A DNA stretch of 64,000 nt from assembly GCA_023701245.1 (NCBI GenBank), contig JAMPXK010000006.1, positions 3,152-67,151 of the forward strand, written 5' to 3'. The translations under genes were made by a program, and so were the position numbers. The number at the start of each line of letters is the position of its first letter. Position 1 is the first letter of the stretch. Under the pieces are notes generated by a model. That model saw only the letters and a list, made by a program, of their open reading frames with translations, ran no database searches and was not told the DNA's origin. This DNA is from Elusimicrobiales bacterium. GTDB taxonomy: Bacteria > Elusimicrobiota > Elusimicrobia > Elusimicrobiales > UBA9959. Below are positions 3,370 through 53,942 of the stretch, in pieces.

Positions 3370-3503
3370 GCGGGTGGCGAGGGGGTGCCTTCAGAAGGCC
3401 CTCACGGAGGCCCGAGCTTGCGCAGCGCGAGGGCCGAGTGAGGAGGGGCGGGCACGGTGTGTCCCGACCCCGTGCCTGAGGAAGGCACCCCCTCGCCACC
3501 CGC
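3370..3503. repeat. Type-1 nested-hairpin intergenic element, copy A
   Basis: Perfect 23-bp inverted arms (3370-3392 gcgggtggcgagggggtgccttc / 3481-3503) enclose a core shared with copies at 9896-10023 and 53788-53942. Confidence 0.9.
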
Positions 3504-6318: not shown

Positions 6319-8630
6319 TAAAGCGCCTCGAACTGGAAGATTTCGGCAAGTTCCGCAAAACCTCCCTGGTCTTCGGGCCTTTCACGCTGGTGACCGGCCC
6401 CAACGAGGCAGGCAAGACCACCGTTTTCGACGCGCTCTTCGACGCGCTTTGCGCCGGGTCCAAGCACGAAGGGCGGCCGCTCTGGAAGAACATGGCCGCC
6501 CGTTACGGGGCCATCCGCCGGTCCTCCGTCGTCTGGGAGGACGGTTTCGCTCCGCTGCAATTCGGCGACAACGAGTTCCTTGAGATCTTCGCTATCCGCG
6601 GCGGGGAACTTTCCGTAAAGCACCCCGAGAATAAAGGGGCGTCCTCCTGGGCGGAAGCGGCGGAGAACGCGCTGCTTAATTCCGGGCTCAACCCGGCCCG
6701 GCTGGCCGCCGGTCTCAGGGACAAGGCGGAAAGCGCGCGCAAAGGTTCCATCCAGGCCAGGCTGCACCGTTTGAAAGAGGCCATAACGGACAAGGGGCCC
6801 ATGATAGCGGCGCTCCGGTCGGAGCGCGACGCCGTGCTGGCCGGAGCCCAAACCGCCGCCGGGCTCGCGGCCGAGCGGGAGCGCCGCGCCGCCGCCCTGG
6901 AATTGAAAAATTCCGAACTGGCGCAGTTGGGCGCTAAGGTGGAAGAACTCTCCTCCGCGGCCCGCCTGGCCGCCGCCATAGAGGGCATAAATACGCTGCG
7001 GGACCTGAAGGAAGCCAGGGAGGAGGCGGCCGCCCTGGCGGCCTACGCTTCCAGCGAGCTGCCGGCCTACCGGGCCTTGAAACATACCCAGTCCGAAATG
7101 GAGAAGGCAGAGGCTTCCGCGGCCGCGGCCCTGGCCGAAAAACGCTCCGCGCTCGACGCGGCGCAGAAGGCCGCCGCCGAACTTTCCGCTAAAGCCGGCC
7201 AGCTGCAGCCTCGCGGCGAAATGGCCCTGGTCCTGGCCGACAAACTGGCGGCTTTCGCGGCCGAGCCCGGCAAAGTCACCCGCGTGCTGAATACCCGGCT
7301 CCGTTTCGGCCTCTGGGCGGGCGGCCTGGCGCTTGCGGCGCTGGTGGCGTACTCGGGCGCCGGTGCCGTGGCCTACGCGGCCGCGGCCGCTATCCTGGGC
7401 GCGGCCGGCTGGGCCGGGTTCAAACTCGCTTTTACCCAGACCATGGTTCCCCGCGGTCCGGGTGAGGAAGCCGCTTTCCTGGCCGGCGTGGCCGCCACCT
7501 GGTCCACGGTCTGCGAGGCCCCCCTCCCTAAGCAGGGCGTGGAAGACGCCCGCAACTACCTGGCCCGGGCCAGGGCGGACCAGGAAGCCGCGGCCGAGGC
7601 CGCCGAGGCCAAGGTTTCCGAAGTGGAATTCCTGATAGCTTCGGCCAGTTCGGCGGAGGCCGACCTGGAGGACCGGGCGCGCAGGGCCCGCAAGGCGGCC
7701 GCCGAGGCCGACAAGTGGCTGAAGGCCCGCGCCTGCGCGACCGAGGACGAATACCAGGCGAAGCTGGCCGAGTATAAAGCCCGCGCGGCCCGCTGCGCCG
7801 ATATGGAACAGCGCCTGGCGGTGTTCCTGCGCCGCAACAATTGCTCCGCCGAGAAAGAGCTGAAGGATAAACTGCATACCGAGAAAGAATCCATAGAGCG
7901 GCGCGGGATCGGTCCCGAACAGGCGAACGGGCCCGAACTGGAACGCCTCAAGCACGCGCAGGCCCTGCTGGCGCAGGAAGTCAGGGAACTGGAAGCGGCG
8001 CTCAACAAGGTCGCTTCCGAACTTGAGACGGCCAAGGCCGTTTCCGGGGTGCGCCTCGGCGGCCTGCCGGAAAGAATAAACCTGGCCGAGACGGAACTGG
8101 AAGCGGAGAAGGCGGAACTGGCGGAACTGGAACTGCAGGCGCAGGCCTGCCTGCTCGCCGCCGGGGTTTTCGACCGCCTTGGCGAGAGCTCGCTGCTGGC
8201 TTTCGAGGAACTCGGCAAGGAAGTTTCCTCCGTGCTGCAGGCGGTGCTGCCGGCGGCAAGCGCTGAATTCAGGGTTTTTGAAGCGGCGGGAGCGGCGGTT
8301 ACGGACGCCACCGGCCTGCGCCGGCCCGTGCGGAACCTTTCTTCGGGCACGCGCGACCTTTTTATGCTGGCCGCGCGCCTGGCCATAGCCAGGCGCTCAC
8401 GCCTGGGCCAGGCCGGCCCCGCGCCGGCGCTGCTGCTGCTGGACGAACCTTTTTATACGCTGGACCAGGCGCGGACGCGCCTGGCACTGCTGCTGCTGGC
8501 CGCCTTCCACAAGAACACCGGCTGGCAGATCATAATCCTTACCAAGGACCCTGGCGTCGCCGCCGAAGCCGCCCGCCTGGACGGGGTCAAGGCGACGGAA
8601 GTGGCCCTCGAACCTCCCAAGCCGCTCTAA
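6315..8630 (+). CDS. SMC/Rad50-like AAA ATPase with membrane-spanning apex (YhaN/SbcE-like)
   Basis: Walker A GPNEAGKTT, signature LSSGTRD, Walker B LLLLDEP, and long Ala/Glu-rich coiled coils. Two hydrophobic helices sit mid-protein (LWAGGLALAALVAY...AAGWAGFKLAF) where Rad50 has its hook. Confidence 0.75.
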   Translation: MIKRLELEDFGKFRKTSLVFGPFTLVTGPNEAGKTTVFDALFDALCAGSKHEGRPLWKNMAARYGAIRRSSVVWEDGFAPLQFGDNEFLEIFAIRGGELSVKHPENKGASSWAEAAENALLNSGLNPARLAAGLRDKAESARKGSIQARLHRLKEAITDKGPMIAALRSERDAVLAGAQTAAGLAAERERRAAALELKNSELAQLGAKVEELSSAARLAAAIEGINTLRDLKEAREEAAALAAYASSELPAYRALKHTQSEMEKAEASAAAALAEKRSALDAAQKAAAELSAKAGQLQPRGEMALVLADKLAAFAAEPGKVTRVLNTRLRFGLWAGGLALAALVAYSGAGAVAYAAAAAILGAAGWAGFKLAFTQTMVPRGPGEEAAFLAGVAATWSTVCEAPLPKQGVEDARNYLARARADQEAAAEAAEAKVSEVEFLIASASSAEADLEDRARRARKAAAEADKWLKARACATEDEYQAKLAEYKARAARCADMEQRLAVFLRRNNCSAEKELKDKLHTEKESIERRGIGPEQANGPELERLKHAQALLAQEVRELEAALNKVASELETAKAVSGVRLGGLPERINLAETELEAEKAELAELELQAQACLLAAGVFDRLGESSLLAFEELGKEVSSVLQAVLPAASAEFRVFEAAGAAVTDATGLRRPVRNLSSGTRDLFMLAARLAIARRSRLGQAGPAPALLLLDEPFYTLDQARTRLALLLLAAFHKNTGWQIIILTKDPGVAAEAARLDGVKATEVALEPPKPL

Positions 8631-9877
8631 ACCGCCGCCCGCCGGGCCAGCCGGTAGGCGGCCAGGGCCTCCGGGAACGGCGACAAGACCCGCTCCAGCA
8701 CTCCCTTGCATTCCGAGATCGCGGTGCCGTAATTGGTTATGGGGATCCCGGCCGCCGCGGCCCGGCCCATGCGGTTGAGTATCTCCGCGCGGTTGAGCAT
8801 GCAGCCGCCGCACTGGATGGCCAGCTTGTAATCCCCCAGTCCGCCCGGCAGGTCGTGCCCGGCGAAAGTGTCTATCTTCAACTCCCCCCCGGCGGTTTCC
8901 TTAAGCCAGCGCGGCAGCTTTACTCGGCCGATGTCGTCCTCTATGGCATGGTGGCTGCAGGCTTCCAGGACGGCCACCCGGTCTCCGGGCCGCAGGCCGC
9001 GTATGGCGGCGGCCCCGGCGGCGTAGGCGGACAGGTCCCCTTTAAAACGGGCGAACAGGATGGAAAAAGTGGTGCAGGGCACGCCGGGCGGCGTGTGCTT
9101 GACCATGAAGTCCACCACCTGGGAATCGCAGACCACCAGCGCCGGCGGCTCTTTGAGGGCGTCCAGGGCCCGGAGGTATTCGTGCTCGCGGCAGACCAGC
9201 GGCAGGGCGCCGTGGTCCAGCAGGTCGCGCATGGCCTGGACCTGCGGCAATATTATGCGGCCCTTGGGGGCTTCTTTGTCTATGGGGATGATGAACACCG
9301 CGGTCTGGCCGGGTTTTACCAGGTCTCCCAGTATGACGGCCGGGGCGCCGGCCGGCGGCGCGCCGAGGCGCAGCAGGCGTTCTTTCACGGCGGCCACGGC
9401 GGCCTCACGGCGGGTCTTATCCACGGCGGAGCAGAGGATGGGGGCTATGCCGCGGCCGGCCAGGGCGGCGGAGAGTTCCGGGGCGGGCGCGGCGATATCG
9501 GTCTTGTTGACCAGGACGATAACGGGAATGCGCTTTTCGGCGGCGGCCGCCAGGATCTCCTCTTCGCAGTCGCCCCAGCCGGCGGGTTCGGCTACCAGCA
9601 GGGCCACGTCGGCGCGGTCGAAGATGCGGCGGGCGCGTTCTTTGCGGAGTTCGCCCAGGCGGCTGTTGTCGTCGAGGCCGGCGGTGTCGAGGAAGACCAC
9701 GGGACCGACGGGCAGGAGTTCCATGCTCTTCTCCACCACGTCGGTGGTGGTGCCGGGGACCGGCGAGGTAATGGCTACGTCCTGGCCGGCCAGCATATTG
9801 AGCACGCTGGACTTGCCGACGTTGGTGCGGCCGAAGATGGCGATCTGGAGTCTCATCGATTTAGGCGTGCTGTTCAT
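8627..9877 (-). CDS. hydF: [FeFe] hydrogenase maturase GTPase HydF
   Basis: G1 GRTNVGKSS, G3 DTAG, NKTD. C-terminal EACSHH...QCGGC cluster motif. Start moved to ATG 9877 (MNSTPKS, GGAAAGGA SD); the longer ORF reads through repeat copy B. Confidence 0.88.
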   Translation of the reverse strand: MNSTPKSMRLQIAIFGRTNVGKSSVLNMLAGQDVAITSPVPGTTTDVVEKSMELLPVGPVVFLDTAGLDDNSRLGELRKERARRIFDRADVALLVAEPAGWGDCEEEILAAAAEKRIPVIVLVNKTDIAAPAPELSAALAGRGIAPILCSAVDKTRREAAVAAVKERLLRLGAPPAGAPAVILGDLVKPGQTAVFIIPIDKEAPKGRIILPQVQAMRDLLDHGALPLVCREHEYLRALDALKEPPALVVCDSQVVDFMVKHTPPGVPCTTFSILFARFKGDLSAYAAGAAAIRGLRPGDRVAVLEACSHHAIEDDIGRVKLPRWLKETAGGELKIDTFAGHDLPGGLGDYKLAIQCGGCMLNRAEILNRMGRAAAAGIPITNYGTAISECKGVLERVLSPFPEALAAYRLARRAAV

Positions 9878-9895
9878 AGTAGTCCTTTCCTCGGG

Positions 9896-10023
9896 TCCGG
9901 CGGGGGTATGGGGTCTGAAGGCCCTCTCGGAGGCCGAGGCTTGCGTAAGCGACGAGGCCGAGTGAGGAGCGGCGCGAACGGTGTTCGCGACCGCGTGCCT
10001 GAGGACCCCATACCCCCGCCGGA
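9896..10023. repeat. Type-1 nested-hairpin intergenic element, copy B
   Basis: Perfect 20-bp arms (9896-9915 tccggcgggggtatggggtc / 10004-10023) around the conserved core. Lies between the hydE stop and the hydF start. Confidence 0.9.
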
Positions 10024-10029
10024 ACCCCT

Positions 10030-11022
10030 TTATGCCCGCTTCAAACTGTGGCCGAAACCTTCGGCGCGCTGCCGGCCCAGGGAGGCCAGCATGGCGTCCA
10101 CGCAGCCGGCGCACTGCTCCGGCTGTTCTCCGGTGCAGATCTTGCCGGGGTACAGGCTGTAGTCGGCGCGGTTCTCCATGGGGCTGATGTTGGGCATCAG
10201 CACGTTGGCGCCGCAGCCCAGGGCCTTCTGCCTCCCCCTGGGGTCCAGGGTGCCCATGGCGGTGGTGGCCGGGATATGGGTGTTCTTGGTGACGATGCGG
10301 GTCAGCGCCACCATGCGCAGGGCGGCGTCGAGCGTGCCGCAGTCGGCCCCGGCCATGGGGGTTTCGGGGCTGGCGATGAACGGGCCTATGCCCACCATGT
10401 CCAGGTCCAGCTTCTTGAAGAGGAGGATGTCGTCGGCCATGCTTTCCAGGCTCTGGCCGGGCAGGCCGGCCATTACGCCGGACCCTACCTGGAACCCGGC
10501 ATCCTTGAGGCGCGCCAGACAGGCGAAACGCCTGTCGTAATCCGAGTCCGGCTTGAGCATGCTGAAAAGGCGCCGGTCGGAGGTTTCGAAGCGCAGCAGG
10601 AAACGGTCGGCCCCGGCGGCGCGCAGCAGCCTGTACTCTTCGGCGGAGTACTCCCCTACGGAAAGGGTGATGGCCAGGCCGGTCTCGGTCTTTACTTTTT
10701 CCACTACGGCGGCCAGCTCCCTGGGCCCGTAATGGGGGTCTTCGCCGGACTGCATCACCACGGTTTGGTACTTCAGGCGGACGGCGGTGCGGGCGCAGTC
10801 CAGTATCTGCGCCGGGCTCAGGCGGTAGCGGCGCACTTTGGCGTTGCCGGCCCTTATGCCGCAGTAGTAGCAGCGGCGGCGGCAGTAGTTGGAGAACTCT
10901 ATGAGGCCGCGCAGGTGTACGCCGTCGCCTACCTGCTCGCGGCGCACCTTGTCCGCCAGGGCATAGAGATCCGCCGGATCGCTATCCGGGTTGAGGGCGG
11001 CGATGATCTCATTTTTGTTCAT
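10030..11022 (-). CDS. hydE: [FeFe] hydrogenase maturase HydE (radical SAM)
   Basis: 330-aa ORF. Radical-SAM CRRRCYYCGI (CX3CX2C), BioB-like fold signature, position between hydG and hydF. Confidence 0.88.
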   Translation of the reverse strand: MNKNEIIAALNPDSDPADLYALADKVRREQVGDGVHLRGLIEFSNYCRRRCYYCGIRAGNAKVRRYRLSPAQILDCARTAVRLKYQTVVMQSGEDPHYGPRELAAVVEKVKTETGLAITLSVGEYSAEEYRLLRAAGADRFLLRFETSDRRLFSMLKPDSDYDRRFACLARLKDAGFQVGSGVMAGLPGQSLESMADDILLFKKLDLDMVGIGPFIASPETPMAGADCGTLDAALRMVALTRIVTKNTHIPATTAMGTLDPRGRQKALGCGANVLMPNISPMENRADYSLYPGKICTGEQPEQCAGCVDAMLASLGRQRAEGFGHSLKRA

Positions 11023-11039
11023 ATTTGGCCCGGCCCGGG

Positions 11040-11067
11040 CCCCCCTTCCGCAAAGGGTTCGCGGGGG
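11040..11067. repeat. Partial type-2 element (shares 26 of 27 aligned nt with the 3' part of the 16386-16479 element)
   Basis: cccccc-ttccgcaaagggt-t-cgcggggg here versus ccccccc-ttccgcaaagggt-g-cgcgggg at about 16439-16466. Lies in the 70-nt hydG-hydE gap. Confidence 0.7.
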
Positions 11068-11092
11068 AGCGCCACTGACAGCCCGCTGTTAT

Positions 11093-12571
11093 TCAGAAGC
11101 ATAGGTCCCGCTCGCCGCCTTCTATCCTTTTGTAGTAGGTTTCCAAAAGCTTCAGGGTCTCCGGAGGGAAATGCGCTCCGCGGTCGCGGATCTCGTTGAT
11201 CTCGCGGCGGATCAGCGCTTCGCCTTTGGCCCTGGTGGCTTCGGAGGCGAAGTCGTCGAGCCATTCGCGGTAGGTGAGCACGGCGTTGAGCTTGCAGAAG
11301 CGGCTTTCATGCCCGCTCTTGAGCAGTTTCATGATGTGGTCGCCGGTGCGGCCGCAGCGGTAGCCGGAGGCGCAGAAGGAGGTGATGTGGCCCAGGTCGG
11401 CCAGCTCGCCTATCACCTCGTCGAGGGAGCGGGTGTCGCCCAGGATGAACTGCTGTTTCTCGGCTTCCTGCGCGCCGGCGCGCTCGGAGTAGGCGCCTAT
11501 GCCTATGCGGGTGCTGGCGTCGCGCTGGGTGCACATGCCTATGACCTCGCGGATGGTCTCCGGGCGCTCGCGGGCGGTGACTATCATGCCGGCGTAGGGG
11601 ACGGCCAGGCGCAGTACGGCCACCAGCTTCTTGAAATCGGCGTCGGAAACGTTGCGGAGGCTGGCCTCGGGCAGGCTGGTGCCGTCGGCGTTCTCCAGGC
11701 GCGGGAAAGAGATGGTATGCGGGCCGACGCCGAAGCGCGCTTCCAGTTCGCGCGCGTGCGCTACCAGGCCCAGCACTTCGAATTTCCAGTCGGGGTTGAG
11801 GCCGAAGAGGGCGCCCAGGGCCACGTCGTCTATGCCGGCGGCGAAGGCCCGGTGCATGACGTAGAGGCGCCAGCGGTAGTCGGCTTTGGGGGTGCCGCCG
11901 GGATGAAGTCTGGCGTAGAGCTCCCGGTCGTAGGTTTCCTGGAAGACCTGGTAGGTGCCGAGGCCGGCGGCCTTGAGCAGCTTCAGGTCCTCGACGTTCA
12001 TGGGGGCGGCGTTGACGTTGACGCGGCGTATCTGGCCGAAGCCCTTGCGGGTGGGCACTTTGACGGCGTAGATGGTCTTCATGGCCTCGGCTATGTACTG
12101 CGCGCCGGTGGCGGGATGTTCGCCGGTGACGAAGATGAGGCGCTTATGGCCTATGCGCCCGGCGAGGGCTTCGGCCTCGGACCGGATCTCTTCCATGGAG
12201 AGTTTGCGGCGCACGGCCCCGGCGTTGCCGGTGCGGAAGCCGCAGTAGAGGCAGTTGTTGACGCAGAAGTTGGAGGCGTAGAGCGGGGCGAAGGTGATGA
12301 CGCGGTTGTCGTAGACCTTGCGCTTGACATCGCGGGCGGCCTGGTAGATCTCTTCGAGCAGGCCGGGGTCGGTGACGGCCAGGAGCGCCGCGGCGTCTTC
12401 GGGCGGGAGGGCCTCGGAGACGGCGAGCGAACGGGCGAGGATCTCGCGGACGCGGTCGGCCGAAGGGGCCGGGGCGGCGAGCGCCGCTTTCAGCGCTTTA
12501 TCGTCTATGAAGTCTTTGCCGTCTTTGAGGTAGTCTGCGTAGGTGTCTGCGTTAACGGTCACGGTTTGCAT
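11093..12571 (-). CDS. hydG: [FeFe] hydrogenase maturase HydG (radical SAM tyrosine lyase)
   Basis: Radical-SAM CVNNCLYCGF, ThiH-like body, C-terminal Cys triad. Start moved to ATG 12571 (MQTVTVN, GGAGA SD); the longer ORF reads into repeat element F. Confidence 0.88.
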   Translation of the reverse strand: MQTVTVNADTYADYLKDGKDFIDDKALKAALAAPAPSADRVREILARSLAVSEALPPEDAAALLAVTDPGLLEEIYQAARDVKRKVYDNRVITFAPLYASNFCVNNCLYCGFRTGNAGAVRRKLSMEEIRSEAEALAGRIGHKRLIFVTGEHPATGAQYIAEAMKTIYAVKVPTRKGFGQIRRVNVNAAPMNVEDLKLLKAAGLGTYQVFQETYDRELYARLHPGGTPKADYRWRLYVMHRAFAAGIDDVALGALFGLNPDWKFEVLGLVAHARELEARFGVGPHTISFPRLENADGTSLPEASLRNVSDADFKKLVAVLRLAVPYAGMIVTARERPETIREVIGMCTQRDASTRIGIGAYSERAGAQEAEKQQFILGDTRSLDEVIGELADLGHITSFCASGYRCGRTGDHIMKLLKSGHESRFCKLNAVLTYREWLDDFASEATRAKGEALIRREINEIRDRGAHFPPETLKLLETYYKRIEGGERDLCF

Positions 12572-12597
12572 AAGGTCTCCTTGGTTCGGGGCCGCCA

Positions 12598-12698
12598 GGG
12601 TGTTACCCTGGGCCCCACACCCGGGGAACCGTTGCGCGGTTCCCCCGTCCCTTACGGGACGGGTCCCCCTCCCCAAGTGGGGCGTGCGGGTAACACCC
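12598..12698. repeat. Type-2 nested-hairpin intergenic element (copy F)
   Basis: Outer stems GGGTGTTACCC/GGGTAACACCC and GCCCCAC/GTGGGGC enclose hairpins GGGGAACC[gttgcgc]GGTTCCCC and CGTCCC[ttac]GGGACG. Confidence 0.85.
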
Positions 12699-12720
12699 CG
12701 CCGTCCCCTCCAAACAGCGC

Positions 12721-13896
12721 CTAGTGCACGGCTTCGGTTGCGACCGGCACCGGCGCGTCCTTGAGCGTCAGCTCGAAGGAGGTCCCTTCACCGTACTTGG
12801 ACTGCACTTTTACGTCGCCGCCGTAAAGCTTTACCACTTTCTTGAGTATGGACAGGCCGAGGCCGCTGCCGTCGATGTTGCGGGTGTGCTCGTTCTTCAT
12901 GCGCACGAATTCCCCGAACAGTTTGGCGAGCTCCTGCTCCGTCATGCCTATGCCGGTGTCCGAGCAGCGTATGGCTACGGCGCCGTCCTGGCGGGCCAGT
13001 TCGAGGACCGCCCGGCCGCCTTCGCGGTTGTACTTGACGGCGTTGGTCAGCAGGTTGGACAGGACCATGTCCACTTCGCCCGGGTCGGCCGTCATCAGCA
13101 GCTGCGCCGGGGCTTTGAGCTCCACCGTGACTTTTTTGGCTTCGGCCAGGGCGGCGATGTTCTCCAGTATGAGCCCGGCGGTCTTTACCAGGTCCACCTG
13201 TTCTATGGCGCGCCGTTTTTTGCCGGATTCCAGGCGGGTAAGGTCCAGCAGGTCCATGACGAGTTTTCTCATGCCGCCTATGCGGGTGACGCTGCGGTCC
13301 ACCATGGCGTCGTAGGCGGCCAGCTCGGGGCCTTTCAGGCGCTCTTTCATGAGGTGCATGTAGCCTTCCACCGCGGCCAGCGGGCTCTTGAGCTCGTGCG
13401 CGAGGACCGAGATGAATTCGAAACGCACCTGGCGCTTCTCGTCCTCCAGCTTTTTGGCCTTGCGCTGCAGGTAGACGCTGCGCGCGGCCTTGGAGATGGT
13501 GGCGCGGAGTTCTTCCGGAGTAAAGGGCTTGGCCAGGAAGTCGAAAGCCCCGCGCTTGGTGGCGGTGACCGCCACTTCCAGCGAGGCGAAGGCCGTTATC
13601 ATGATGGTCAGGAAATCCCCCGCCCCCGGGGCGGCTGCCAGCACGTCTATGCCGGTCATGTCCGGCAGTTTATAGTCCAGGAGCAGGATGTCCGGGCTCT
13701 TGGCTTTCAGCGCGGCCAGGGCTTCGTCGCCGGTGGAGGCGCTGCGCACGGCGAAGGTGACGGTCTCGCTGAAGTCGGGCAGGGGCACGCTGAAGCCTTC
13801 CAGGGAGCGTTCCGCCCCCGCGCGCATGCCGGCCTCGTCGTCGACGATGAGTACGTCCAGCTGGTGGACGGGCAGGGGGTCAGGCATGACGCTCAC
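12721..13896 (-). CDS. Hybrid response-regulator receiver / histidine kinase (REC-HisKA-HATPase_c)
   Basis: N-terminal REC (VLIVDDE...LLLDYKLPDMTG), H-box SVLAHELKSPL, and N/G boxes (LTNAVKYN, DTGIGM, GSGLGLS). No transmembrane or DNA-binding region. Confidence 0.85.
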   Translation of the reverse strand: MSVMPDPLPVHQLDVLIVDDEAGMRAGAERSLEGFSVPLPDFSETVTFAVRSASTGDEALAALKAKSPDILLLDYKLPDMTGIDVLAAAPGAGDFLTIMITAFASLEVAVTATKRGAFDFLAKPFTPEELRATISKAARSVYLQRKAKKLEDEKRQVRFEFISVLAHELKSPLAAVEGYMHLMKERLKGPELAAYDAMVDRSVTRIGGMRKLVMDLLDLTRLESGKKRRAIEQVDLVKTAGLILENIAALAEAKKVTVELKAPAQLLMTADPGEVDMVLSNLLTNAVKYNREGGRAVLELARQDGAVAIRCSDTGIGMTEQELAKLFGEFVRMKNEHTRNIDGSGLGLSILKKVVKLYGGDVKVQSKYGEGTSFELTLKDAPVPVATEAVH

Positions 13897-14290
13897 CCGC
13901 GCCCATAAGGCGCTTAAGTTCGCTCTTGAGCTGCTCGAAGCGCAGTTCCTTGTGGATTATGGCGTCGGCCTTTATCCAGGTCTTGGGGTCATGGGCCTTG
14001 TCGAAGTAGAAGCCGGTCTCCTTGGTGACCGAGGTCACGATGACCACCGGGATACTGGGGTCCATCTTCTTTATCTTGTGGCTCAGCACGAAGCCGGAAT
14101 CGGGGTTCTCCATCATCAGGTCCAGGACGGCGGCCTTGAAATTGCCGGGCCGGATGAGAGGCTCGGCCTCTTTCTGGGTGGAGGCGCTGACCACTTCGTA
14201 GTCTTCGCTTTCGAGGTAGATCTTCATCTGTTCCATCATATCCGGGTCGTCTTCCACTACCAGGATCTTTATTTTGTTCTTGTCGGTCAT
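13880..14290 (-). CDS. Single-domain response regulator (REC only)
   Basis: 136-aa ORF with ILVVEDD and AAVLDLMM receiver motifs and no output domain. Overlaps the downstream REC-HK gene by 17 nt. Confidence 0.85.
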   Translation of the reverse strand: MTDKNKIKILVVEDDPDMMEQMKIYLESEDYEVVSASTQKEAEPLIRPGNFKAAVLDLMMENPDSGFVLSHKIKKMDPSIPVVIVTSVTKETGFYFDKAHDPKTWIKADAIIHKELRFEQLKSELKRLMGAGERHA

Positions 14291-14314: not shown

Positions 14315-16348
14315 TCATTTGCCCGCGGTCTCCGCTTTCATCTTGATCGCCCCGGCGTCGCGCGCCACGCGGGGCAGTTTTACCGTAAAGGTGGTGCCCG
14401 TCGGGCCCTTGGCCGGGTCGGAGTTGCTCTCTACCGCGATGCTGCCGCGGTGCACTTTGATGATGCCGTAAGAGACCGCCAGCCCCAGGCCGGTCCCCTT
14501 GCCTATCTGCTTGGTGGTGAAGAAAGGCTCGAAGATCTTCTTGGCATTCTCCGGCTTTATGCCGCAGCCGGTGTCCGAAACGCTGAAGCAGACGCTTTCG
14601 CGCTCGGGGAAGGTGCGGATGGTGAGCGCGCCGGCGCCGCCCATGGCTTCCAGGGCGTTGGTCACCAGGTTGGTAAGCACCTGGATTATCTGGTCGGGGT
14701 CCATCTCGGCCTGCAGGTCCTCGCCGGAGCGGTCCACGGTCAGCTTCAGCGTGGCCGGGACCGACGCCGTCTTGAAATAGTTGTCGATGAGGCGTACCAG
14801 GCTGGTCTGGCGGAAGAACGGCTTGTTCTTGCGGGCGAAGTTGAGCAGCCCGCCCACGATCTTCTTGCAACGGTCGGCCTGCTCGGTTATCATCTTGGCG
14901 TCGGCGAAGACGCGGGTGTCCTTCTGGCACTGTTCGGCCAGCAGGTGGGCGTAGAGCAGCACCACGCCGAGCGGGTTGTTGAGCTCATGGGCCACTCCGG
15001 CGGCCAGCTGGCCCATGCTGGCGAGCTTTTCCGACTGCATCAGGGCCTGCTTGGTCTTGGCCAGCTGGTTGTAGGAGACCGTCAGTTCGTCGGCGGTGGT
15101 CTTGAGCCGGTCTATGGTGTAGGGGAGGCACATTTCGCTTTCGGCTATGCCGCGGATGATGGCCACGGCGTGCTCCACGCAGGTGGGGTAGCCGCAGGCG
15201 CCGCAGTTCAGTTCGTCCTCCGGCCTGGTCTTGCCCATCTTGGCCAGGACGGCCTTGAGCTCCTCGCCGGCCGGCAGTTTCATGCGCCGGTCCTCGGCTT
15301 CGAAGGAGGCGCCGTAGTTCAGGCCGCGGAAGCGGCGCACGCTCTCTTCCCAGTCGTTGAGGCGGATGCTGAAATAGCTTTTGCGGGCGTAGCGGCGCAG
15401 GGCGGCCTCGCGCGCGTGCTTGGAGGACTTTACGCTGATGCCGGGGCCCATGATGCAGCCGTTGCAGCAGAGCAGGTCTATGAAATCGGCGTCGATGTCT
15501 CCGTGCTCCATGTTCTTGAGCACTTCCGGGAAGTTCTCCAGCCCTTCCGAAGAGAGGAAGCGGCCGCTCAGCAGGTCCTCTTCGAGTTCGGCGGAGTTGA
15601 GCAGGCCGCCGCCCATGGGGTAGAGCACGCCCTTGGCGGGATGCGGCGGGTCGAACTGGGCGTCCAGGGCGCTGTTGCGGTCCACGCCGGCGTCCTTGAG
15701 GATGGTGCGCAGCTCCACGAAGGTTATGGATTCCGCTATGTCGGCCAGGTTGCGGGCGGTCTCTTCCTTCTTGGCCACGCACGGCCCGATGAAGACCACT
15801 TTTACTTCGGGACCGTACATGTCGTGTATGACCCGGGCCTCGGCCACCATGGGGGAGACTATGGGCGCGAGGCTGCCCACCAGGGCCGGGTGGTATTTTT
15901 CCACGAAGGAGACCACTGCGGGGCAGGCGGTGCTGATGAATTTTTTGCCGGGGTTCTCGTTGATGAGCTTGCGGTACTGCAGGGAGACCATGTCCGCGCC
16001 GAAGGCCACTTCGCAGACATGTTTGAAGCCGAGGGCCTTTAACATGCCGGCGAACCGCAGGGGGTCTATCCCGCCGAATTCAACGGGGAAACTTGGGGCC
16101 AGGGCGGCGGCGACGGGCGCGCCGCTCTTGAGGAGGGCTTTTACGGCGCGGATGGAGTCCAGGGTCTCTTTGGCGCCGCGGCTGCACATGAGCACGCAGT
16201 TGGCGCAGCCTATGCAGCGCTCCTTTATGACCTCGGCCTGGCCGCCGGAGATGCGGATGGCCTTGGCGGGGCAGCCGCGCACGCAGGTATAGCACGCCTT
16301 GCAGCGTTCTTTGATGGTCCTTACTAGTGGCTCGCTATCGGGTGTCAT
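14315..16348 (-). CDS. Sensory [FeFe]-hydrogenase-like protein fused to a histidine kinase
   Basis: Contains a 2x[4Fe-4S] ferredoxin motif. The H-cluster-domain motifs are altered: STACP, GPCVAKKEE, LLCCNGCIMGPG. A CX2CX4CX16C motif (CGACGYPTC...C) follows, then H-box VAHELNNPL and HATPase_c. Start set to ATG 16348 (MTPDSEP). Confidence 0.85.
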   Translation of the reverse strand: MTPDSEPLVRTIKERCKACYTCVRGCPAKAIRISGGQAEVIKERCIGCANCVLMCSRGAKETLDSIRAVKALLKSGAPVAAALAPSFPVEFGGIDPLRFAGMLKALGFKHVCEVAFGADMVSLQYRKLINENPGKKFISTACPAVVSFVEKYHPALVGSLAPIVSPMVAEARVIHDMYGPEVKVVFIGPCVAKKEETARNLADIAESITFVELRTILKDAGVDRNSALDAQFDPPHPAKGVLYPMGGGLLNSAELEEDLLSGRFLSSEGLENFPEVLKNMEHGDIDADFIDLLCCNGCIMGPGISVKSSKHAREAALRRYARKSYFSIRLNDWEESVRRFRGLNYGASFEAEDRRMKLPAGEELKAVLAKMGKTRPEDELNCGACGYPTCVEHAVAIIRGIAESEMCLPYTIDRLKTTADELTVSYNQLAKTKQALMQSEKLASMGQLAAGVAHELNNPLGVVLLYAHLLAEQCQKDTRVFADAKMITEQADRCKKIVGGLLNFARKNKPFFRQTSLVRLIDNYFKTASVPATLKLTVDRSGEDLQAEMDPDQIIQVLTNLVTNALEAMGGAGALTIRTFPERESVCFSVSDTGCGIKPENAKKIFEPFFTTKQIGKGTGLGLAVSYGIIKVHRGSIAVESNSDPAKGPTGTTFTVKLPRVARDAGAIKMKAETAGK

Positions 16349-16385
16349 AATCGTTGTCTGACTTAAGTCCTGAGCTATTAGTGGC

Positions 16386-16479
16386 GCCCGGGATATTGCC
16401 CCACGCACCCTGGAAGATGGAAACCCTTGCGTCGGTTTCCCCCCCTTCCGCAAAGGGTGCGCGGGGCAATATCCCGGGC
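16386..16479. repeat. Type-2 nested-hairpin intergenic element (copy D)
   Basis: 25-bp arms with one mismatch (16386-16410 / 16455-16479) enclose GGAAACC[cttgcgtc]GGTTTCC and CCCTT[ccgca]AAGGG hairpins. Lies between the hydA stop and the sensor-kinase start. Confidence 0.88.
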
Positions 16480-16492
16480 ACCCTTCTGCTGT

Positions 16493-18217
16493 CTACGTTA
16501 GGTCCGCCGCCTTGCGCCTGGCGTACTTAGTGTGCAGGAGGTGGTGGCTCTTCTCGCCGAGGGGCTTGCCGAGGAAGTCCTTGTAGAGGGCCTGCACGGC
16601 CTTGTTGGCGTGCGAGGTGCGGATCTTCTCGGAGGCGTCGATATTGTACAGGGCGCGCATGCGCTCGGCTACGGCGGCCTTGTTGCGGGCGAAGGGCTGG
16701 CCGCCGCCGTTGATGCAGCCGCCGGGGCAGGTCATGATCTCTATGAAGTGGAGGTCCTTCCTGCCGTTCTTGATCTCTTCCAGCAGTTTGCGGGCGTTGC
16801 CCAGGCCGCTGACGGCCGCTACCCCGGCTTCCAGGGCGCCGATCTTGAGGCGGGCTTCCTTGATGCCGTTCTGGCCGCGCACGGCTTCCACCTTGAGGGT
16901 GCCCAGTTCCTTGCCGGTGAGCAGGTAATGGGCGGTGCGCAGGGCGGCTTCCATGACGCCGCCGGAGGCGCCGAAGATCTTGCCGGCGGTGCTGCGGTCC
17001 CCGAAGGGCATATCCGGCTCTTCGGGCTGCAGGGTCTTAAGGTCTATGCCGTAAATGCGCAGCAGCTGGGCCAGTTCGCGCGTGGTCACCACCGCGTCGA
17101 TGTCGGGGGTGCCGTCGCGGCCCATCTCGGGGCGGGTCACTTCGAATTTCTTGGCGGTGCAGGGCATGACCGAGACGCTGTACATCCTGGCCGGGTCGAG
17201 CCCCTGCTTTTTGGCGTAGTAGGTCTTGATCATGGCTCCCAGCATCTGCTGCGGGCTCTTGCAGGTGGAGAGGTTGGGCAGCAGTTCGGGATAGAAGGTC
17301 TCCACGAACTTTATCCACCCGGGCGAGCAGGAGGTGAACATGGGCAGCGGGCCGCCGGTCTTTATGCGGTGCGCCAGTTCGCTGGCCTCCTCCATGATGG
17401 TCAGGTCGGCCGCGAAGGAGGTGTCGAAGACGGCCTTGAAGCCCATCTTGCGGAAAGCCGCGGTCATGACGCCGTTGACGTCGGTGCCGGCGGGCAGGCC
17501 GAACTCCTCGGCGAGGGACACGGAGATGGACGGGGCGTGCTGCACCACCACGTGCAGTTTCTTGTCGGAGAGGGCTTCCATGACCGCCTGGATGTCGCTC
17601 TTCTCCATCAGGGCGCCGGTGGGGCAGACGTTGATGCACTGCCCGCAGTTGACGCAGGAGGAGACGTTGAGGCTGGAGTCGAAAGCGCAGCCGATGGAGG
17701 TGTCCGAGCCGCGCTTTACGAAGTCTATGCAGGAGACGCCCTGCACCTCCTCGCAGACGCGCACGCACTTGCCGCAGAGAATGCACTTGTCGGGGTCGCG
17801 GGAGATGGAGGGGCTGGAAATATCCAGGGGCTTCTTCTTCTTGGCCACGGGGAAGCGGCGGCCGGTCACGCCGTAGTCGCGGCTGAGGCGGTTAAGCTCG
17901 CAGGTGGGCTGCTTGGCGCAGTAGAGGCAGTCGTCGGGATGAGAACCCAGCAGCAGTTCCACCACGGTCTTGCGGGCGTTTATGACGCGCGGGCTGTTGG
18001 TGAGGATCTTCATCCCCTCGGCCGCCGGGAAAGAGCAGCTGGGCAGGAGGTTGCCCTGGCCTTCCGCTTCTACCACGCAGATGCGGCAGGCGCCGGAGGG
18101 CAGCATGCCTTCCATGTGGCAGAGGGTGGGCACATGCACGCCTTCGCGGCGCAGCACGGTGAGCAGGGTTTCCCCCGCCTGGGCTTCTACGGTCTTTCCG
18201 TTCACGGTGAGTTTCAT
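16493..18217 (-). CDS. hydA: [FeFe] hydrogenase catalytic subunit (HydA/HndD type, multi-cluster N-terminus)
   Basis: N-terminal 2Fe-2S, HX3CX2CX5C and 2x[4Fe-4S] motifs. H-cluster motifs MPCTAKKFE and EIMTCPGGCINGGGQP are canonical, but motif 1 reads TSCSPGW. Confidence 0.88.
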   Translation of the reverse strand: MKLTVNGKTVEAQAGETLLTVLRREGVHVPTLCHMEGMLPSGACRICVVEAEGQGNLLPSCSFPAAEGMKILTNSPRVINARKTVVELLLGSHPDDCLYCAKQPTCELNRLSRDYGVTGRRFPVAKKKKPLDISSPSISRDPDKCILCGKCVRVCEEVQGVSCIDFVKRGSDTSIGCAFDSSLNVSSCVNCGQCINVCPTGALMEKSDIQAVMEALSDKKLHVVVQHAPSISVSLAEEFGLPAGTDVNGVMTAAFRKMGFKAVFDTSFAADLTIMEEASELAHRIKTGGPLPMFTSCSPGWIKFVETFYPELLPNLSTCKSPQQMLGAMIKTYYAKKQGLDPARMYSVSVMPCTAKKFEVTRPEMGRDGTPDIDAVVTTRELAQLLRIYGIDLKTLQPEEPDMPFGDRSTAGKIFGASGGVMEAALRTAHYLLTGKELGTLKVEAVRGQNGIKEARLKIGALEAGVAAVSGLGNARKLLEEIKNGRKDLHFIEIMTCPGGCINGGGQPFARNKAAVAERMRALYNIDASEKIRTSHANKAVQALYKDFLGKPLGEKSHHLLHTKYARRKAADLT

Positions 18218-43079: not shown

Positions 43080-43097
43080 CGCCCGGCGCCAAGGCGC

Positions 43098-43130
43098 AAA
43101 AAAGCCCCGGGACCTCCCGGGGCTTTTTTT
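43098..43130. terminator. Bidirectional Rho-independent terminator
   Basis: AAAAAA-GCCCCGGG-acct-CCCGGGGC-TTTTTTT between convergent genes ending at 43079 (+) and 43144 (-). Confidence 0.8.
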
Positions 43131-43143
43131 GGGCTCGGGCGGC

Positions 43144-48426: not shown

Positions 48427-50028
48427 CTACTCCGATTTGTAATCGGATTTTTTCTTTTTAAGGAACCTGGTGAACCAGTTCCCGCCGGGGGCGGCCTTCT
48501 GGGGCGGCGCCTGGCGGCTGTCCGGCCTCTGTTGGCGTCGGCCTTCGTAACGGCGCGGTTCCTCGAAATACGGGGACAGGCTTACGATGCCGCCTTTCCG
48601 GGACGGGTCGGCCCCGTAGCGGTTGGGACGGCCGTGGGCGCTTGCCTGCTGGGGCCTGCCGCCGACGGGGCCCCTGGCCGGGCGGCGCGAGTCGTCGCGG
48701 CGGCCTCCCGGGCGGGCGGAGGCGGGTCTGTTGTCGCGGCGCGGGCGGCCGCCGTGCTCCTGCTGCGGCCGGTCCGACTGCGGCGGGCGGGCCTGGCGGG
48801 GGCCCTGCGGGCGCGGCTGGCGCTGGCGCTGTTCGGGCGGCCTGCGGGCCGGTGCTCCCTGGGGCGCGGCCTCTGGCGCGCCGAAGTCCGCGGAAGCCAC
48901 GTCCGGCATCTGGACGCGCGTCAGCGGCATGCGGATAAGCCGCTCTATGTTGCGGACGTCCCGGCCCTGGTCCGGGGCGGCGAAGGTGATGGCGCGGCCG
49001 GGCTGGCCGGCGCGGCCGGTGCGGCCTATGCGGTGCACGTAATTGCCGTCCTCGTCGGGCAGGTCGTAGTTGATGACCAGTTCTATCCCGGTCACGTCTA
49101 TGCCGCGGGCGGCGATGTCGGTGGCCACCAGGACCCGGTACTTCCCCGACTTGAACCCGTCGAGGGCGTCCCGGCGCTGGGCCAGAGAACGGTTGGAATG
49201 GATCTCGGCCGCGCTGTGCGGCATTTCCCGTATGGCGCGGGCTATCTTCTTGGCGTTATGCTTGGTGCGCACGAAGAGCAGCACGCTGCCCCAGTACTTG
49301 TCCAGCAGTTTGGCCAGGAGGGCGTTCTTCTCGCTGCGGTCCACTATGAAAAGTTCCTGCTCCACCTTTTCGGCCGCCGTGCCGGGACGGGCCACTTCCA
49401 CGCGCATGGGCAGTTTCATATGACGGCTGGCCAGGCGCATGATGTCGTCGGGCATGGTGGCAGAGAAGAGCATGGTCTGCCTGTCTCCGGGGACCGCCGC
49501 TATGATCTTTTCTATCTGCGGGGCGAAACCCATGTCGAACATGCGGTCCGCTTCGTCGAGCACCAGTACCCGCACGTCCGCCAGGCTGACGGTGCGCTGC
49601 TGGAGGTGGTCTATCAAACGCCCGGGGGTGGCGATTATTATCCGCGGGCCCCGGCGCAGTTCCTGGGTCTGGCGGTTCATGCTTTCCCCGCCTATCACCA
49701 CGGCGCAGCCCATCCCCATCAGCGGGGAGAACTGGCGTACCACGTCGGCGACCTGCAGCGCGAGTTCCCTGGTCGGGACTATCACGAGGCCTTTGCCCTG
49801 GCCGGCCGCCGCGAGACGCTGGATCATGGGAACGGCGAAAGCGATGGTCTTGCCGGTGCCGGTCTGGGCTATGCCCACCATGTCGCCGCCGCCGGCGGCC
49901 ACCGGGATGGCTTTCTGCTGGATGGGAGTGGGGACTTTGAACTTCAGTTTATCTAAAGCTTCAAGGAGTTTGGGGGCTATGCCCAGGCCGTAAAAGCCGG
50001 GCGAGGTGTCGGTTTTTGTTTCAGTCAT
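48427..50028 (-). CDS. DEAD-box ATP-dependent RNA helicase with Arg/Pro/Gln-rich C-terminal tail
   Basis: Q-motif, AQTGTGKT, DEAD, SAT and HRIGRTGRAG motifs. ATG 50028 is preferred over the TTG 50034 of the ORF track, which overlaps a GATAAT box. Confidence 0.88.
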   Translation of the reverse strand: MTETKTDTSPGFYGLGIAPKLLEALDKLKFKVPTPIQQKAIPVAAGGGDMVGIAQTGTGKTIAFAVPMIQRLAAAGQGKGLVIVPTRELALQVADVVRQFSPLMGMGCAVVIGGESMNRQTQELRRGPRIIIATPGRLIDHLQQRTVSLADVRVLVLDEADRMFDMGFAPQIEKIIAAVPGDRQTMLFSATMPDDIMRLASRHMKLPMRVEVARPGTAAEKVEQELFIVDRSEKNALLAKLLDKYWGSVLLFVRTKHNAKKIARAIREMPHSAAEIHSNRSLAQRRDALDGFKSGKYRVLVATDIAARGIDVTGIELVINYDLPDEDGNYVHRIGRTGRAGQPGRAITFAAPDQGRDVRNIERLIRMPLTRVQMPDVASADFGAPEAAPQGAPARRPPEQRQRQPRPQGPRQARPPQSDRPQQEHGGRPRRDNRPASARPGGRRDDSRRPARGPVGGRPQQASAHGRPNRYGADPSRKGGIVSLSPYFEEPRRYEGRRQQRPDSRQAPPQKAAPGGNWFTRFLKKKKSDYKSE

Positions 50029-50105
50029 ACTCAATTATCCCATATACGGGGTCCCTATTGATATAGGGCGCCCCGCCGGCGGGCCGTTTTTTATATAATA
50101 ACGGC

Positions 50106-52413: not shown

Positions 52414-52452
52414 TAAAAAGAAAAGGCCGCCAGTCAGGCGGCCTTTTCTTTT
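52414..52452. terminator. Bidirectional Rho-independent terminator
   Basis: AAAAGGCCGCC-agtca-GGCGGCCTTTT with A-rich and T-rich flanks, between convergent genes ending at 52401 (+) and 52467 (-). Confidence 0.8.
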
Positions 52453-52466
52453 GCTGCGGGAAGGCG

Positions 52467-53738
52467 TCAGCGGCGGCGGCGGCCCCCGCCTCCGGCGGGT
52501 CTGCGCGCGGAGCGCTGGTTCCAGCCGCGGCCGGCGGCCGCGTGATTGTAGCCCCACAGGGTCTCGGCCGGGATCTCCGGGTGGGTGACCTGGTTCATGG
52601 GGATGCCGGTGAGGGTCTCTATACTGCGCACGTCCCCGCCCTGCTCGGGCATGGCGAAGGTGATGGCGCGGCCTGGCTGGCCGGCGCGGCCGGTGCGGCC
52701 TATGCGGTGCACGTAAGCGTCGTCCTCGGCGGGCATCTCGTAGTTTATCACCACTTCTATGCCGGTCACGTCTATGCCGCGGGCGGCGATGTCGGTGGCC
52801 ACGAGGATGCGGTACTTGCCGGACTTGAAGCCTTCCATCGCGTCCTTGCGCTGGCCCATGGTGCGGTCGGAGTGGATCTCGGCCACGGGGTGGCCCATGT
52901 AGTCCAGTATCTGCGCCACCTTGGCGGCGTCGTAGCGGGTCTCCACGAAAATGAGCACGGTGCCGGTGTACTTCTCCAGGAGCTTGGAGAGCAGCAGGGG
53001 CTTCATGCCGCTGCGCACCACGTAGAGTTCCTGGATCACGTTGGCGGCGGCGGTGCCGGACTTGGCCACTTCTATGCGGATCGGCAGCTTCATGTGCTGG
53101 CTGGCCAGTTTCATCACCTCGTCGGGAATGGTGGCGGAGAAGAGCATGGTCTGCCGTTCCTTGGGCAGCTCGCGGATGATGCGGTTGATCTGCGGGGCGA
53201 AACCCATGTCGAACATGCGGTCGGCCTCGTCGAGCACCAGGATGCGGGCGTCGTGCACTTTGGCGGCGCCGCGCTCGATATGGTCGTAGACGCGGCCCGG
53301 GGTGCCTATGAGGATCCTGGCCTTGCGGTTGAGGTCGCGCAGCTGGGATTCTTTGCCTTCGCCGCCTATGAGGCAGGCGACGCCCATGTTGAAGGCGGGC
53401 GCGAAATCGCGGCAGACTTCTGCCACCTGGATGGCGAGTTCGCGGGTGGGCAGCAGCACCAGGGCCTTGCCCGGGCCGGCGGCCAGGCGCTGGATCATGG
53501 GCAGCGAGAAAGCGATGGTCTTGCCGGTGCCGGTCTGCGCTATGCCCACCATGTCCTTGCCTTCGGTGGCGATGGGGATGGATTTCTGCTGGATGGGCGT
53601 GGGGGTGACGAAGCCCTTCTTGTCGAGGATGTCCATGAGCTTCGGGGCGATGCCGAGCCCGTAGAAGCCGGAGGCCTTTTTCTTCAAGCCCAGGGTGCGC
53701 AGGGCTTTGAGGCCTATGTTCTTGAGTAGCTTTTTCAT
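52467..53738 (-). CDS. DEAD-box ATP-dependent RNA helicase (second paralog)
   Basis: AQTGTGKT, DEAD, SAT and HRIGRTGRAG motifs. Short Gly/Arg tail. TATAAT box 11 nt upstream of the ATG. Confidence 0.88.
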   Translation of the reverse strand: MKKLLKNIGLKALRTLGLKKKASGFYGLGIAPKLMDILDKKGFVTPTPIQQKSIPIATEGKDMVGIAQTGTGKTIAFSLPMIQRLAAGPGKALVLLPTRELAIQVAEVCRDFAPAFNMGVACLIGGEGKESQLRDLNRKARILIGTPGRVYDHIERGAAKVHDARILVLDEADRMFDMGFAPQINRIIRELPKERQTMLFSATIPDEVMKLASQHMKLPIRIEVAKSGTAAANVIQELYVVRSGMKPLLLSKLLEKYTGTVLIFVETRYDAAKVAQILDYMGHPVAEIHSDRTMGQRKDAMEGFKSGKYRILVATDIAARGIDVTGIEVVINYEMPAEDDAYVHRIGRTGRAGQPGRAITFAMPEQGGDVRSIETLTGIPMNQVTHPEIPAETLWGYNHAAAGRGWNQRSARRPAGGGGRRRR

Positions 53739-53787: not shown

Positions 53788-53942
53788 GGGCCGGCATGGA
53801 TATGGCTCGGTCGGGCCTTCGCGCAGGCCTGAGCTTGCGTAAGCGCGAAGGCCGGGTGGAGCGAAGCGACACCGCAGTGTGAGGAGCGGCGGCCACGGTG
53901 TGGCCGACCGCGTGCCCGACCGAGCCATATCCATGCCGGCCC
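53788..53942. repeat. Type-1 nested-hairpin intergenic element, copy C
   Basis: Perfect 29-bp arms (53788-53816 gggccggcatggatatggctcggtcgggc / 53914-53942) around the conserved core, with an extra insert of about 24 nt. Confidence 0.9.

Follow-up and report, generated by a model that had tools for sequence, protein, structure and literature searches.

The hydrogenase maturation genes of an uncultured Elusimicrobiales bacterium raise the question of what a large multi-stem structure is doing directly upstream of hydG. In the window (the whole stretch analysed, 64,000 nucleotides of contig JAMPXK010000006.1 in assembly GCA_023701245.1), this structure is placed between the stop codon of a REC-HK gene (12721-13896, minus strand, stop TAG 12723-12721) and the Shine-Dalgarno sequence AAGGAG (12577-12582, minus strand) of hydG (11093-12571, minus strand, ATG 12571-12569), whose product, a radical-SAM [FeFe]-hydrogenase maturase, shows the domains Radical_SAM and BATS in a domain search. 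An initial annotation, made from the DNA letters alone, had treated the structure as belonging to hydG and as a possible regulator of that gene. Our analysis points elsewhere: it is one copy, which we call B1, of a previously undescribed family of repeats (B-type) scattered in the intergenic spacers of high-GC groundwater Elusimicrobia. With a probability of roughly 0.85, B1 is a copy of clade-specific, non-coding and extremely stable palindromic repeats that are, or descend from, non-autonomous mobile elements similar to miniature inverted-repeat transposable elements (MITEs) or to repetitive extragenic palindromic (REP) sequences.

Aligned with its family, B1 spans 12585-12711 (127 nt) on the minus strand, and an nhmmer profile built from 78 family copies matches 12584-12713 on the same strand with an E value of 1.9e-17. 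The element is small and non-coding, with no start codon or open reading frame of its own. Every stem that had been described from the plus strand is present, namely a two-part outer stem, in which GGGTGTTACCC (12598-12608) pairs with GGGTAACACCC (12688-12698) and GCCCCAC (12612-12618) with GTGGGGC (12677-12683), two perfect hairpins, GGGGAACC (12623-12630) [gttgcgc] GGTTCCCC (12638-12645) and CGTCCC (12646-12651) [ttac] GGGACG (12656-12661), and a C-rich tail (12662-12676). The outer pairing is longer than had been noticed, as an inverted-repeat search joins 12588-12608 to 12688-12708 over 21 nt at 86% complementarity, with three mismatches.

These strings appear in the transcript as their reverse complement, since the hyd genes are on the minus strand. 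Read in the sense direction, B1 begins with GGAGGGG and the 5' arm of the outer stem P1 (GGGGACGGCGGGGTGTTACCC, 12688-12708), followed by the inner continuation of P1 (GCCCCAC, 12677-12683, paired with GTGGGGC at 12612-12618) and a purine-rich junction, J1/2 (UUGGGGAGGGGGACC, 12662-12676), the most conserved segment of the family that is free of search-pattern constraint. Then come the P2 hairpin CGUCCC-GUAA-GGGACG (12646-12661), a variable and dispensable arm of the family, and the P3 hairpin GGGGAACC-GCGCAAC-GGUUCCCC (12623-12645), the family hallmark, whose loop motif CGCAA corresponds to TTGCG on the plus strand. A second junction leads back to the 3' arm of P1 (GGGTAACACCCTGGCGGCCCC, 12588-12608), identified by the inverted repeat and by family covariation, and to a final CCCCGAA.

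Folded as RNA, the 148-nt gap between the two genes reaches -94.4 kcal/mol on the minus, gene-sense strand (z -5.6, with 0/200 shuffles as good) and -83.7 kcal/mol on the plus strand (z -4.1, matched by no shuffle); folding in both senses, as the initial annotation had proposed, thus gives a strong structure either way. The 127-nt element alone scores z -4.9 and -5.2. These comparisons with shuffles indicate that the structure is real and exclude a composition effect. The closed multi-stem junction is therefore well founded, the more so as its pairing is kept through compensatory changes in every relative that carries the element.

Is this structure a property of hydG? We scanned species-representative genomes with the P3 pattern AACCNTTGCGN{0,1}CGGTTYCCCC and obtained at least 118 stretches among the matches listed. 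Full architecture was found in 114 of these listed matches, which come from about 25 metagenome-assembled genomes (MAGs) labelled Elusimicrobia, Elusimicrobiales or Elusimicrobiaceae or left unlabelled, one MAG accounting for up to 22 of the listed stretches. The four listed matches that fall elsewhere (Sorangium, Oceanisphaera, Eubacteriales and Gaiellaceae) have no flanking architecture. At least 30 copies among the loci that we number L015-L132 lie no more than about 150 nt from a contig end (for example L035, at both ends, L048, L053, L056, L060 and L094), the usual sign of repeats, because repeats break assemblies. The genes on either side are unrelated housekeeping genes according to Pfam (SpoIID, TGT, QueA, OTCase, a phosphoesterase, an M20 peptidase, an MFS transporter). 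Many of the flanking open reading frames measure 370-400 aa, which had made us suspect TnpB/IS-type neighbours, and these too proved to be housekeeping families. An association with phages was likewise discarded, as the only match in a scan of viral contigs is a chance one in coding DNA.

Judged from a gene call based on third-position GC content (GC3), 68 copies could be classified by orientation. Between co-directional genes 30 copies are sense and 13 antisense, while 22 lie between convergent genes and 3 between divergent genes; 52 of the 68 stand downstream of a co-oriented gene. Orthologues or duplicates within the hyd cluster account for ten of the 30 sense copies, and by our count the independent bias is about 20:13.

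The orthologous gap between REC-HK and hydG tells the same story from the side of a single locus. Homologues of HydG put the window among groundwater Elusimicrobia, and we compared the hyd clusters of seven relatives retrieved by exact-protein look-ups and of an eighth (L059) from the genome scan. The initial annotation had looked to orthologous hydG gaps for conserved pairing, and this expectation was borne out in one group of genomes and failed in another: five related genomes carry the element (the window, L059, L008, L009/L010 and L001, the last degenerate, its P3 loop interrupted by a 46-nt insert), whereas in three (L007/L006, L004/L005 from GWA2_61_42, and L012/L014) the gap is empty, 19-20 nt long, with a Shine-Dalgarno sequence only, in the order stop, about 10 nt, AGGAGG, ATG. 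A neighbour-joining tree of HydG unites the filled genomes in one clade, to which L007 is sister, and places L004 and L012 outside. The simplest history is one ancestral insertion between stop codon and Shine-Dalgarno sequence, the latter now lying directly 3' of the repeat and intact. On this view, an ancestor shared by the five sampled genomes acquired B1 between the REC-HK stop and the hydG ribosome-binding site, and the copy has been retained since, its pairing kept by compensatory change. Whether the other spacers of the hyd cluster hold B-type repeats, or repeats of a second family (A-type, described below), differs from genome to genome, and one such copy is in opposite orientation.

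These results bear directly on the explanation that the position of B1 invites, a hydG-specific cis-regulatory RNA (a riboswitch, thermosensor or translational operator) that would toggle between the closed junction and a hairpin in the left arm. B1 does stand directly upstream of the hydG Shine-Dalgarno sequence, and its minimum-energy fold pairs UUUGG (12714-12710) with CCAAG, touching the first Shine-Dalgarno bases. Like riboswitches and gene-specific leaders, it has a multi-stem junction, covarying helices and a conserved junction strand within a 5' leader. However, the partial pairing of the Shine-Dalgarno sequence is weak and unconserved in the orthologues. The alternative hairpin, CCAGGGT[gtt]ACCCTGG, exists in the sequence, but only plus-strand single-stranded DNA adopts it as the minimum-energy fold; in RNA of either strand the long-range outer stem wins, and the proposed pair of mutually exclusive folds has to be given up. 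Over the 78 family copies, hairpins folded within an arm hardly outdo shuffles (mean z -0.4 and -1.0), and the alternative arm fold is a by-product of the palindromic arm in the subfamily of the window copy, unconserved family-wide.

Unlike a gene-specific leader, moreover, the B-type has no fixed gene association or orientation, no expression platform and no Rfam match, and it is absent from the orthologous leaders of L007/L006, L004/L005 and L012/L014. More than 100 copies stand beside unrelated genes, in both orientations and in all four gene-orientation contexts. A search of the whole window and six related loci against Rfam gave no match at gathering score, and at E values up to 10 there were only chance-level hits around B1 (mir-939, PtaRNA1 and similar, E 0.4-5). 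As every riboswitch feature that we tested for was missing, a terminator included, we reject a hydG-specific riboswitch as largely refuted, and consider a hydG-specific regulator of any of these kinds hardly credible. The same two findings, the many copies beside unrelated genes and the empty gap in three related genomes, overturn the assignment of the structure to hydG with which we started.

Could B1 instead end transcription between the regulatory and the maturase genes? Its GC-rich stem-loop is very stable and follows a stop codon, and the family prefers the 3' ends of genes. However, no U-tract follows the stem (CCCCGAACCAAGGAG does), and between 12300 and 13000 we found neither a terminator-like site nor a sigma-70-like promoter. 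Canonical bidirectional terminators, with A and T runs on either side of a GC hairpin, occur elsewhere in the window at 43089-43138 and 52416-52452, so that this genome uses ordinary terminators and the A- and B-type repeats are something else. In the relatives with an empty gap, 19-20 nt separate the kinase gene from hydG; this implies co-transcription, which also speaks against a terminator, and we regard this function as very improbable. Because B1 has no promoter or terminator of its own and the relatives keep REC-HK and hydG so close together, B1 is most likely transcribed within the hyd message.

What unites the family is best seen in an alignment of 78 distinct complete copies, taken on the hydG gene-sense strand with plain MAFFT and fitted to no structure. 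The copies measure 112-195 nt. Their consensus reads [GGAGGGG], a P1 5' arm of 20-30 nt, the junction YUUGSGGAAGGGGG and a variable P2, followed by P3 as GGRAACC-G(N)CGCAA(N)-GGUUYCC, a short junction, the P1 3' arm and [CCCCGAC]. The interior hairpin and the junction are the conserved parts, and P1 is hypervariable. The invariance of P3 is partly imposed, since P3 served as the scan pattern; in J1/2, conservation is 90% or more at columns T36, G39-40 and G44-47. By RNAalifold, 23 of 30 pairs show compensatory changes, and all 22 pairs of P1 covary, several of them with all four Watson-Crick types. Paired cells make up 93.6% of P1 and P3 together; shuffling the columns gives 73.8%, and sliding the partner columns no more than 66%. 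Cells with double changes number 388 against 106. P2 varies as well, its stems differing with matching partners (CCCCGCC, CCCGTCCC, CCCCAGCC, CCCCACC, CCCGGCC) and its loop ranging from 3 to about 90 nt.

Two further elements of structure were considered and set aside. A pseudoknot between the P2 loop AAUUUCCCAA and UUGGGGAA in J1/2 shows no covariation, copies with UUGCGGAA keep the loop, and many loops have only 3-4 nt. The conserved 5' flank of one subfamily, which might have been the 3' end of an RNA gene, has no Rfam match and consists of an A-type repeat plus a subfamily-specific outer layer. Separately, a mini-insert of about 46 nt (GCTATGC..GTGCCGYATCA..GCTATGC..ACGGCC) is nested at varying positions in B-type copies, in the B1 orthologue of L001 (9876-9921) and in L107, L125, L126 and L128, and looks like a third small repeat. 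Hairpin extensions of 90 nt are also nested in several B-type copies.

In the JACQPH01/CAZYFL01 subfamily a further helix, GTAACTACTCAGGT...ACCTGAGTAGTTAC, encloses the B core and forms 14-bp terminal inverted repeats (TIRs). Copies bearing these ends are about 185-195 nt long, and four of them (L108, L128, L116, L107) are flanked by perfect 8-bp direct repeats: GAATAATC, TCATAGTC, TATTGTAC and AAATACCA. Judged by its 14-bp TIRs and 8-bp target duplications, this subfamily is a MITE moved by a DDE transposase. Elements of the IS66 family also make target duplications of 8 bp. The TIR of the subfamily starts with GTAAC, and IS66-family ends (GTAAGCGTCC..., GTAACCGTCC...) begin in a GTAAC-like way (PMC12888890), a likeness confined to the first 4-5 bases and the length of the duplication. 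No IS66 transposase or full-length partner was found in the loci examined, and an IS66-family source of the TIR subfamily is only a lead.

The other subfamilies have different outer layers. The family as a whole resembles MITEs in size, copy number and insertion polymorphism, and the TIRs and duplications occur in one subfamily only. Several observations weigh against the mobile-element reading, beginning with the window copy itself, which has no TIR outside P1 and no target-site duplication: its flanks consist of 9 nt from the stop codon to GGAGGGG and 5 nt from CCCCGAACC to the Shine-Dalgarno sequence. Its own arrival as a mobile element is therefore presumptive. The P1 arms vary across the family and are not terminal recognition repeats. 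Where TIRs are lacking, the flanks show the same longest-shared-word distribution as the shuffled-pair control, and a general search for target duplications added to the TIR subfamily a single 11-nt AT-rich repeat, at L025. In about 1 Mb of loci examined there was no autonomous or longer element with matching ends.

The divergence of the orthologous copies is a further difficulty. Their identity of 0.73-0.78 (0.92 for the closest pair) matches that of the four-fold-degenerate sites of hydG, 0.72-0.75 (0.86), yet the outer stems are perfect or nearly so, with 22/22 pairs in L008, 21/21 in L009 and one G.U in L059. The inner continuation of P1 reads GCCCCAG/CTGGGGC in orthologues, a compensatory change, and there are multi-base compensatory differences such as CAAC/GTTG against GCAG/CTGC and TGTTACCC/GGGTAACA against TATTCCCC/GGGGAATA. 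Such stems at near-neutral divergence are unexplained by selfish DNA alone. Together with an excess of G.U wobbles in P1 on the sense strand (112 cells, against 26 with A.C), their retention hints at selection on the single-stranded form of one particular strand. The orthologous pairing was either selected or restored by conversion between copies, and this is the main point that our preferred reading leaves unexplained. L008 and L059 each hold two copies in the hyd cluster, and these share lineage-specific stem variants.

Two details of the insertion site were also considered and dropped. The GGAGG of the Shine-Dalgarno sequence cannot be read as a duplicated target, as GGAGGGG starts copies at unrelated loci and has no matching 3' copy. 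A truncation of the kinase C-terminus by the insertion is unsupported, the tails differing only in a low-complexity stretch.

It is tempting to speculate that the family is a functional structured RNA module, a signal for processing, stability or protein binding that the host maintains and that spreads by transposition, in which case B1 would insulate the kinase cistron from the maturase cistron. The pairing kept at the orthologous site despite roughly neutral-rate divergence, the very strong covariation and a junction strand conserved outside the search pattern are what such a module would leave behind, as are the wobble asymmetry and the fact that the G-rich strand is the better folder in 72 of 80 copies. 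The sense-orientation excess (30:13) and the avoidance of divergent, promoter-bearing regions (3 copies, against 22 in convergent gaps) point the same way. However, about 30% of the copies between co-directional genes are antisense, and the excess shrinks to about 20:13, again by our count, without the 10 hyd-cluster copies. Three neighbouring columns, common to subfamilies, account for half of the G.U cells, so these reflect few independent events and the asymmetry is suggestive only. Related genomes have an empty orthologous site, P2 is dispensable, other repeats insert into the core, and gene conversion between paralogous copies, as in L008 and L059, could keep the stems perfect. On balance we think that such a module is possible, though we hold it tentatively.

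A more general form of this idea, in which B-type repeats are host-maintained cis-acting RNAs built from a three-way junction, a 20-30-bp helix, a purine-rich strand and a CGCAA loop, and act as insulators or as a protein platform between cistrons or at 3' ends, appears doubtful to us. If true, it would explain the perfect pairing at neutral-rate divergence and the accumulation of wobbles on one strand, and B1 would separate the fates of the messages for the hydrogen sensor and kinase and for the hydGEF maturases.

In another rival reading, the repeats would be substrates of a single-strand-DNA transposase (HUH/Y1, of the IS200/IS605 or RAYT type) that recognises a hairpin of one strand, as with REP and REPIN sequences. 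Most copies, the window copy included, lack target duplications, G.T is tolerated on one strand only, which fits a single-stranded DNA hairpin, and the extragenic, 3'-end-biased distribution is REP-like. The sense strand of B1 as DNA also takes the closed form (-47.5 kcal/mol, z -4.7). By contrast, the classical TIRs and 8-bp duplications of one subfamily are the signature of a DDE enzyme, and the enzyme of REP and REPIN sequences recognises a conserved stem, whereas in the B-type the stem is hypervariable and the interior conserved. No Y1 transposase gene was seen, although no systematic search for one was made. We consider a single-strand-DNA transposase unlikely.

The reading that we prefer, of repeats that are or derive from non-autonomous mobile elements, has close parallels. 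Correia/NEMIS elements of Neisseria and ERIC/IRU elements of enterobacteria share with the B-type a length of 100-200 nt, the lack of coding capacity, many intergenic copies and insertion polymorphism. Like them, B-type repeats are long imperfect palindromes, which would form stable RNA hairpins in operon transcripts, with TIRs and duplications in one B-type subfamily. In contrast, there is no sequence relationship; the B-type has a conserved internal three-way junction within a hypervariable outer stem, most of its copies are without recognisable terminal repeats or duplications, and its host is an uncultured clade of Elusimicrobia. With the REP/BIME/REPIN group it shares an extragenic, high-copy and hairpin-forming nature, a location at 3' ends or in convergent gaps and rarely in divergent promoter regions, and the lack of target duplications in most copies. 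Yet REPs are palindromes of 20-40 nt whose stem is conserved, while the B-type is about 130 nt long with a junction, and its stem sequences are unconserved, with up to four Watson-Crick types per P1 column, which places it outside the definition of a REP. In the literature that we searched, no paper connects Elusimicrobia with REP or MITE repeats. We class the B-type with the small dispersed palindromic repeats known from bacteria, as a variant not described before and as no proven member of a named family.

These parallels suggest what B1 may do once it is transcribed. REP, ERIC and Correia elements act on mRNA through RNase III cleavage, orientation-dependent stability and a barrier to 3'-exonucleases. 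In the hyd message B1 would form an interrupted outer helix of about 28 bp closing a three-way junction, and by analogy this helix could be an RNase III site or a block to 3'-exonucleases, letting the kinase and maturase parts of the message decay independently. An effect of B1 on mRNA processing or stability is thus plausible.

B1 is one of several such elements in the window. A repeat search returned five long-stem intergenic elements, two of the B-type and three of a second family, the A-type. The second B-type copy, B2, lies in the gap between hydA and the sensor-kinase gene (16374-16491, minus strand, nhmmer E 9e-19; 16383-16482 in the repeat search). It is without P2 and has a 29-bp outer stem and an RNA fold of -86.2 kcal/mol (z -12), and shares with B1 the GGRAACC-nTTGCGn-GGTTYCC hairpin, the C-rich tail and the GCCCCAC motif. 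The 70-nt spacer between hydG and hydE holds a B-type remnant of the 5' half (11033-11089, minus strand, nhmmer E 1e-5, profile positions 4-60), with the 5' arm and junction only. In L059 this spacer contains a full copy, and in L004/L005 a variant of 212 nt.

The A-type repeats (3370-3503, 9893-10026 and 53788-53942) are about 135-155 nt long, with an outer stem of 29-30 bp that differs between copies yet remains complementary. Their inner parts comprise a GCTTGCGYAAGC hairpin, GAGTGAGGAG and a further hairpin, CGNNNAC-ggt-GTNNNCG, that shows compensatory changes. They too are dispersed, as a 5-copy profile gives 39 matches in the Elusimicrobia loci examined, and at six loci an A-type repeat stands directly 5' of a B-type repeat in the same relative orientation as in the window. 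Three such repeats besides B1 lie in the hyd cluster, whose spacers from hydA to hydF all bear repeats except at the two tight junctions on either side of the REC gene (one of about 24 nt, the other an overlap). Repeat density in the window is about 1 per 10 kb by our estimate, with six elements in 64 kb.

The genes around B1 run in the order hydA, sensor kinase, REC, REC-HK, hydG, hydE, hydF, all on the minus strand. They encode a HydA-type [FeFe] hydrogenase (16493-18217), a sensor kinase (14315-16351), a REC protein (13880-14290), REC-HK and HydG as given above, HydE (10030-11022) and HydF (8627-9876). The sensor-kinase gene joins HisKA/HATPase to an [FeFe]-hydrogenase-like domain that has Fe-S motifs, and the REC protein and REC-HK come next. 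The hydrogenase-like kinase, REC and REC-HK look like a hydrogen-sensing phosphorelay between hydA and the maturase genes, and this putative arrangement is kept in every relative whose hyd cluster was fetched. In L008 (4004-5627), the hydA position holds short open reading frames called on the opposite strand, and this hydA could be disrupted or mis-assembled. Elsewhere in the window, two pairs of direct repeats (48921-49218/52595-52892 and 49808-49933/53479-53604), 83-85% identical and 3.67 kb apart, fall inside the genes 48427-50034 and 52467-53738, which are probably paralogous.

For hydrogenase biology, these findings mean that no annotation of the structure in the hydG leader as a hydrogenase-maturation riboswitch is warranted, which removes a tempting false lead. 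For the phylum, they add two undescribed and highly structured repeat families, together with the third small nested insert, in an uncultured lineage. The A- and B-type repeats fill operon spacers and fragment MAG assemblies, the B-type being a systematic cause of assembly breaks in the clade, and they would give false positives in comparative screens for structured RNAs in these genomes. Finally, the design of the B-type is unusual, in that the stem is hypervariable yet always complementary and the junction which it encloses is conserved. Because of this design, and because pairing has been kept for a long time at an orthologous site, the family is a good natural test of what maintains palindromic pairing, be it selection at the level of RNA, selection on single-stranded DNA, or conversion between copies.

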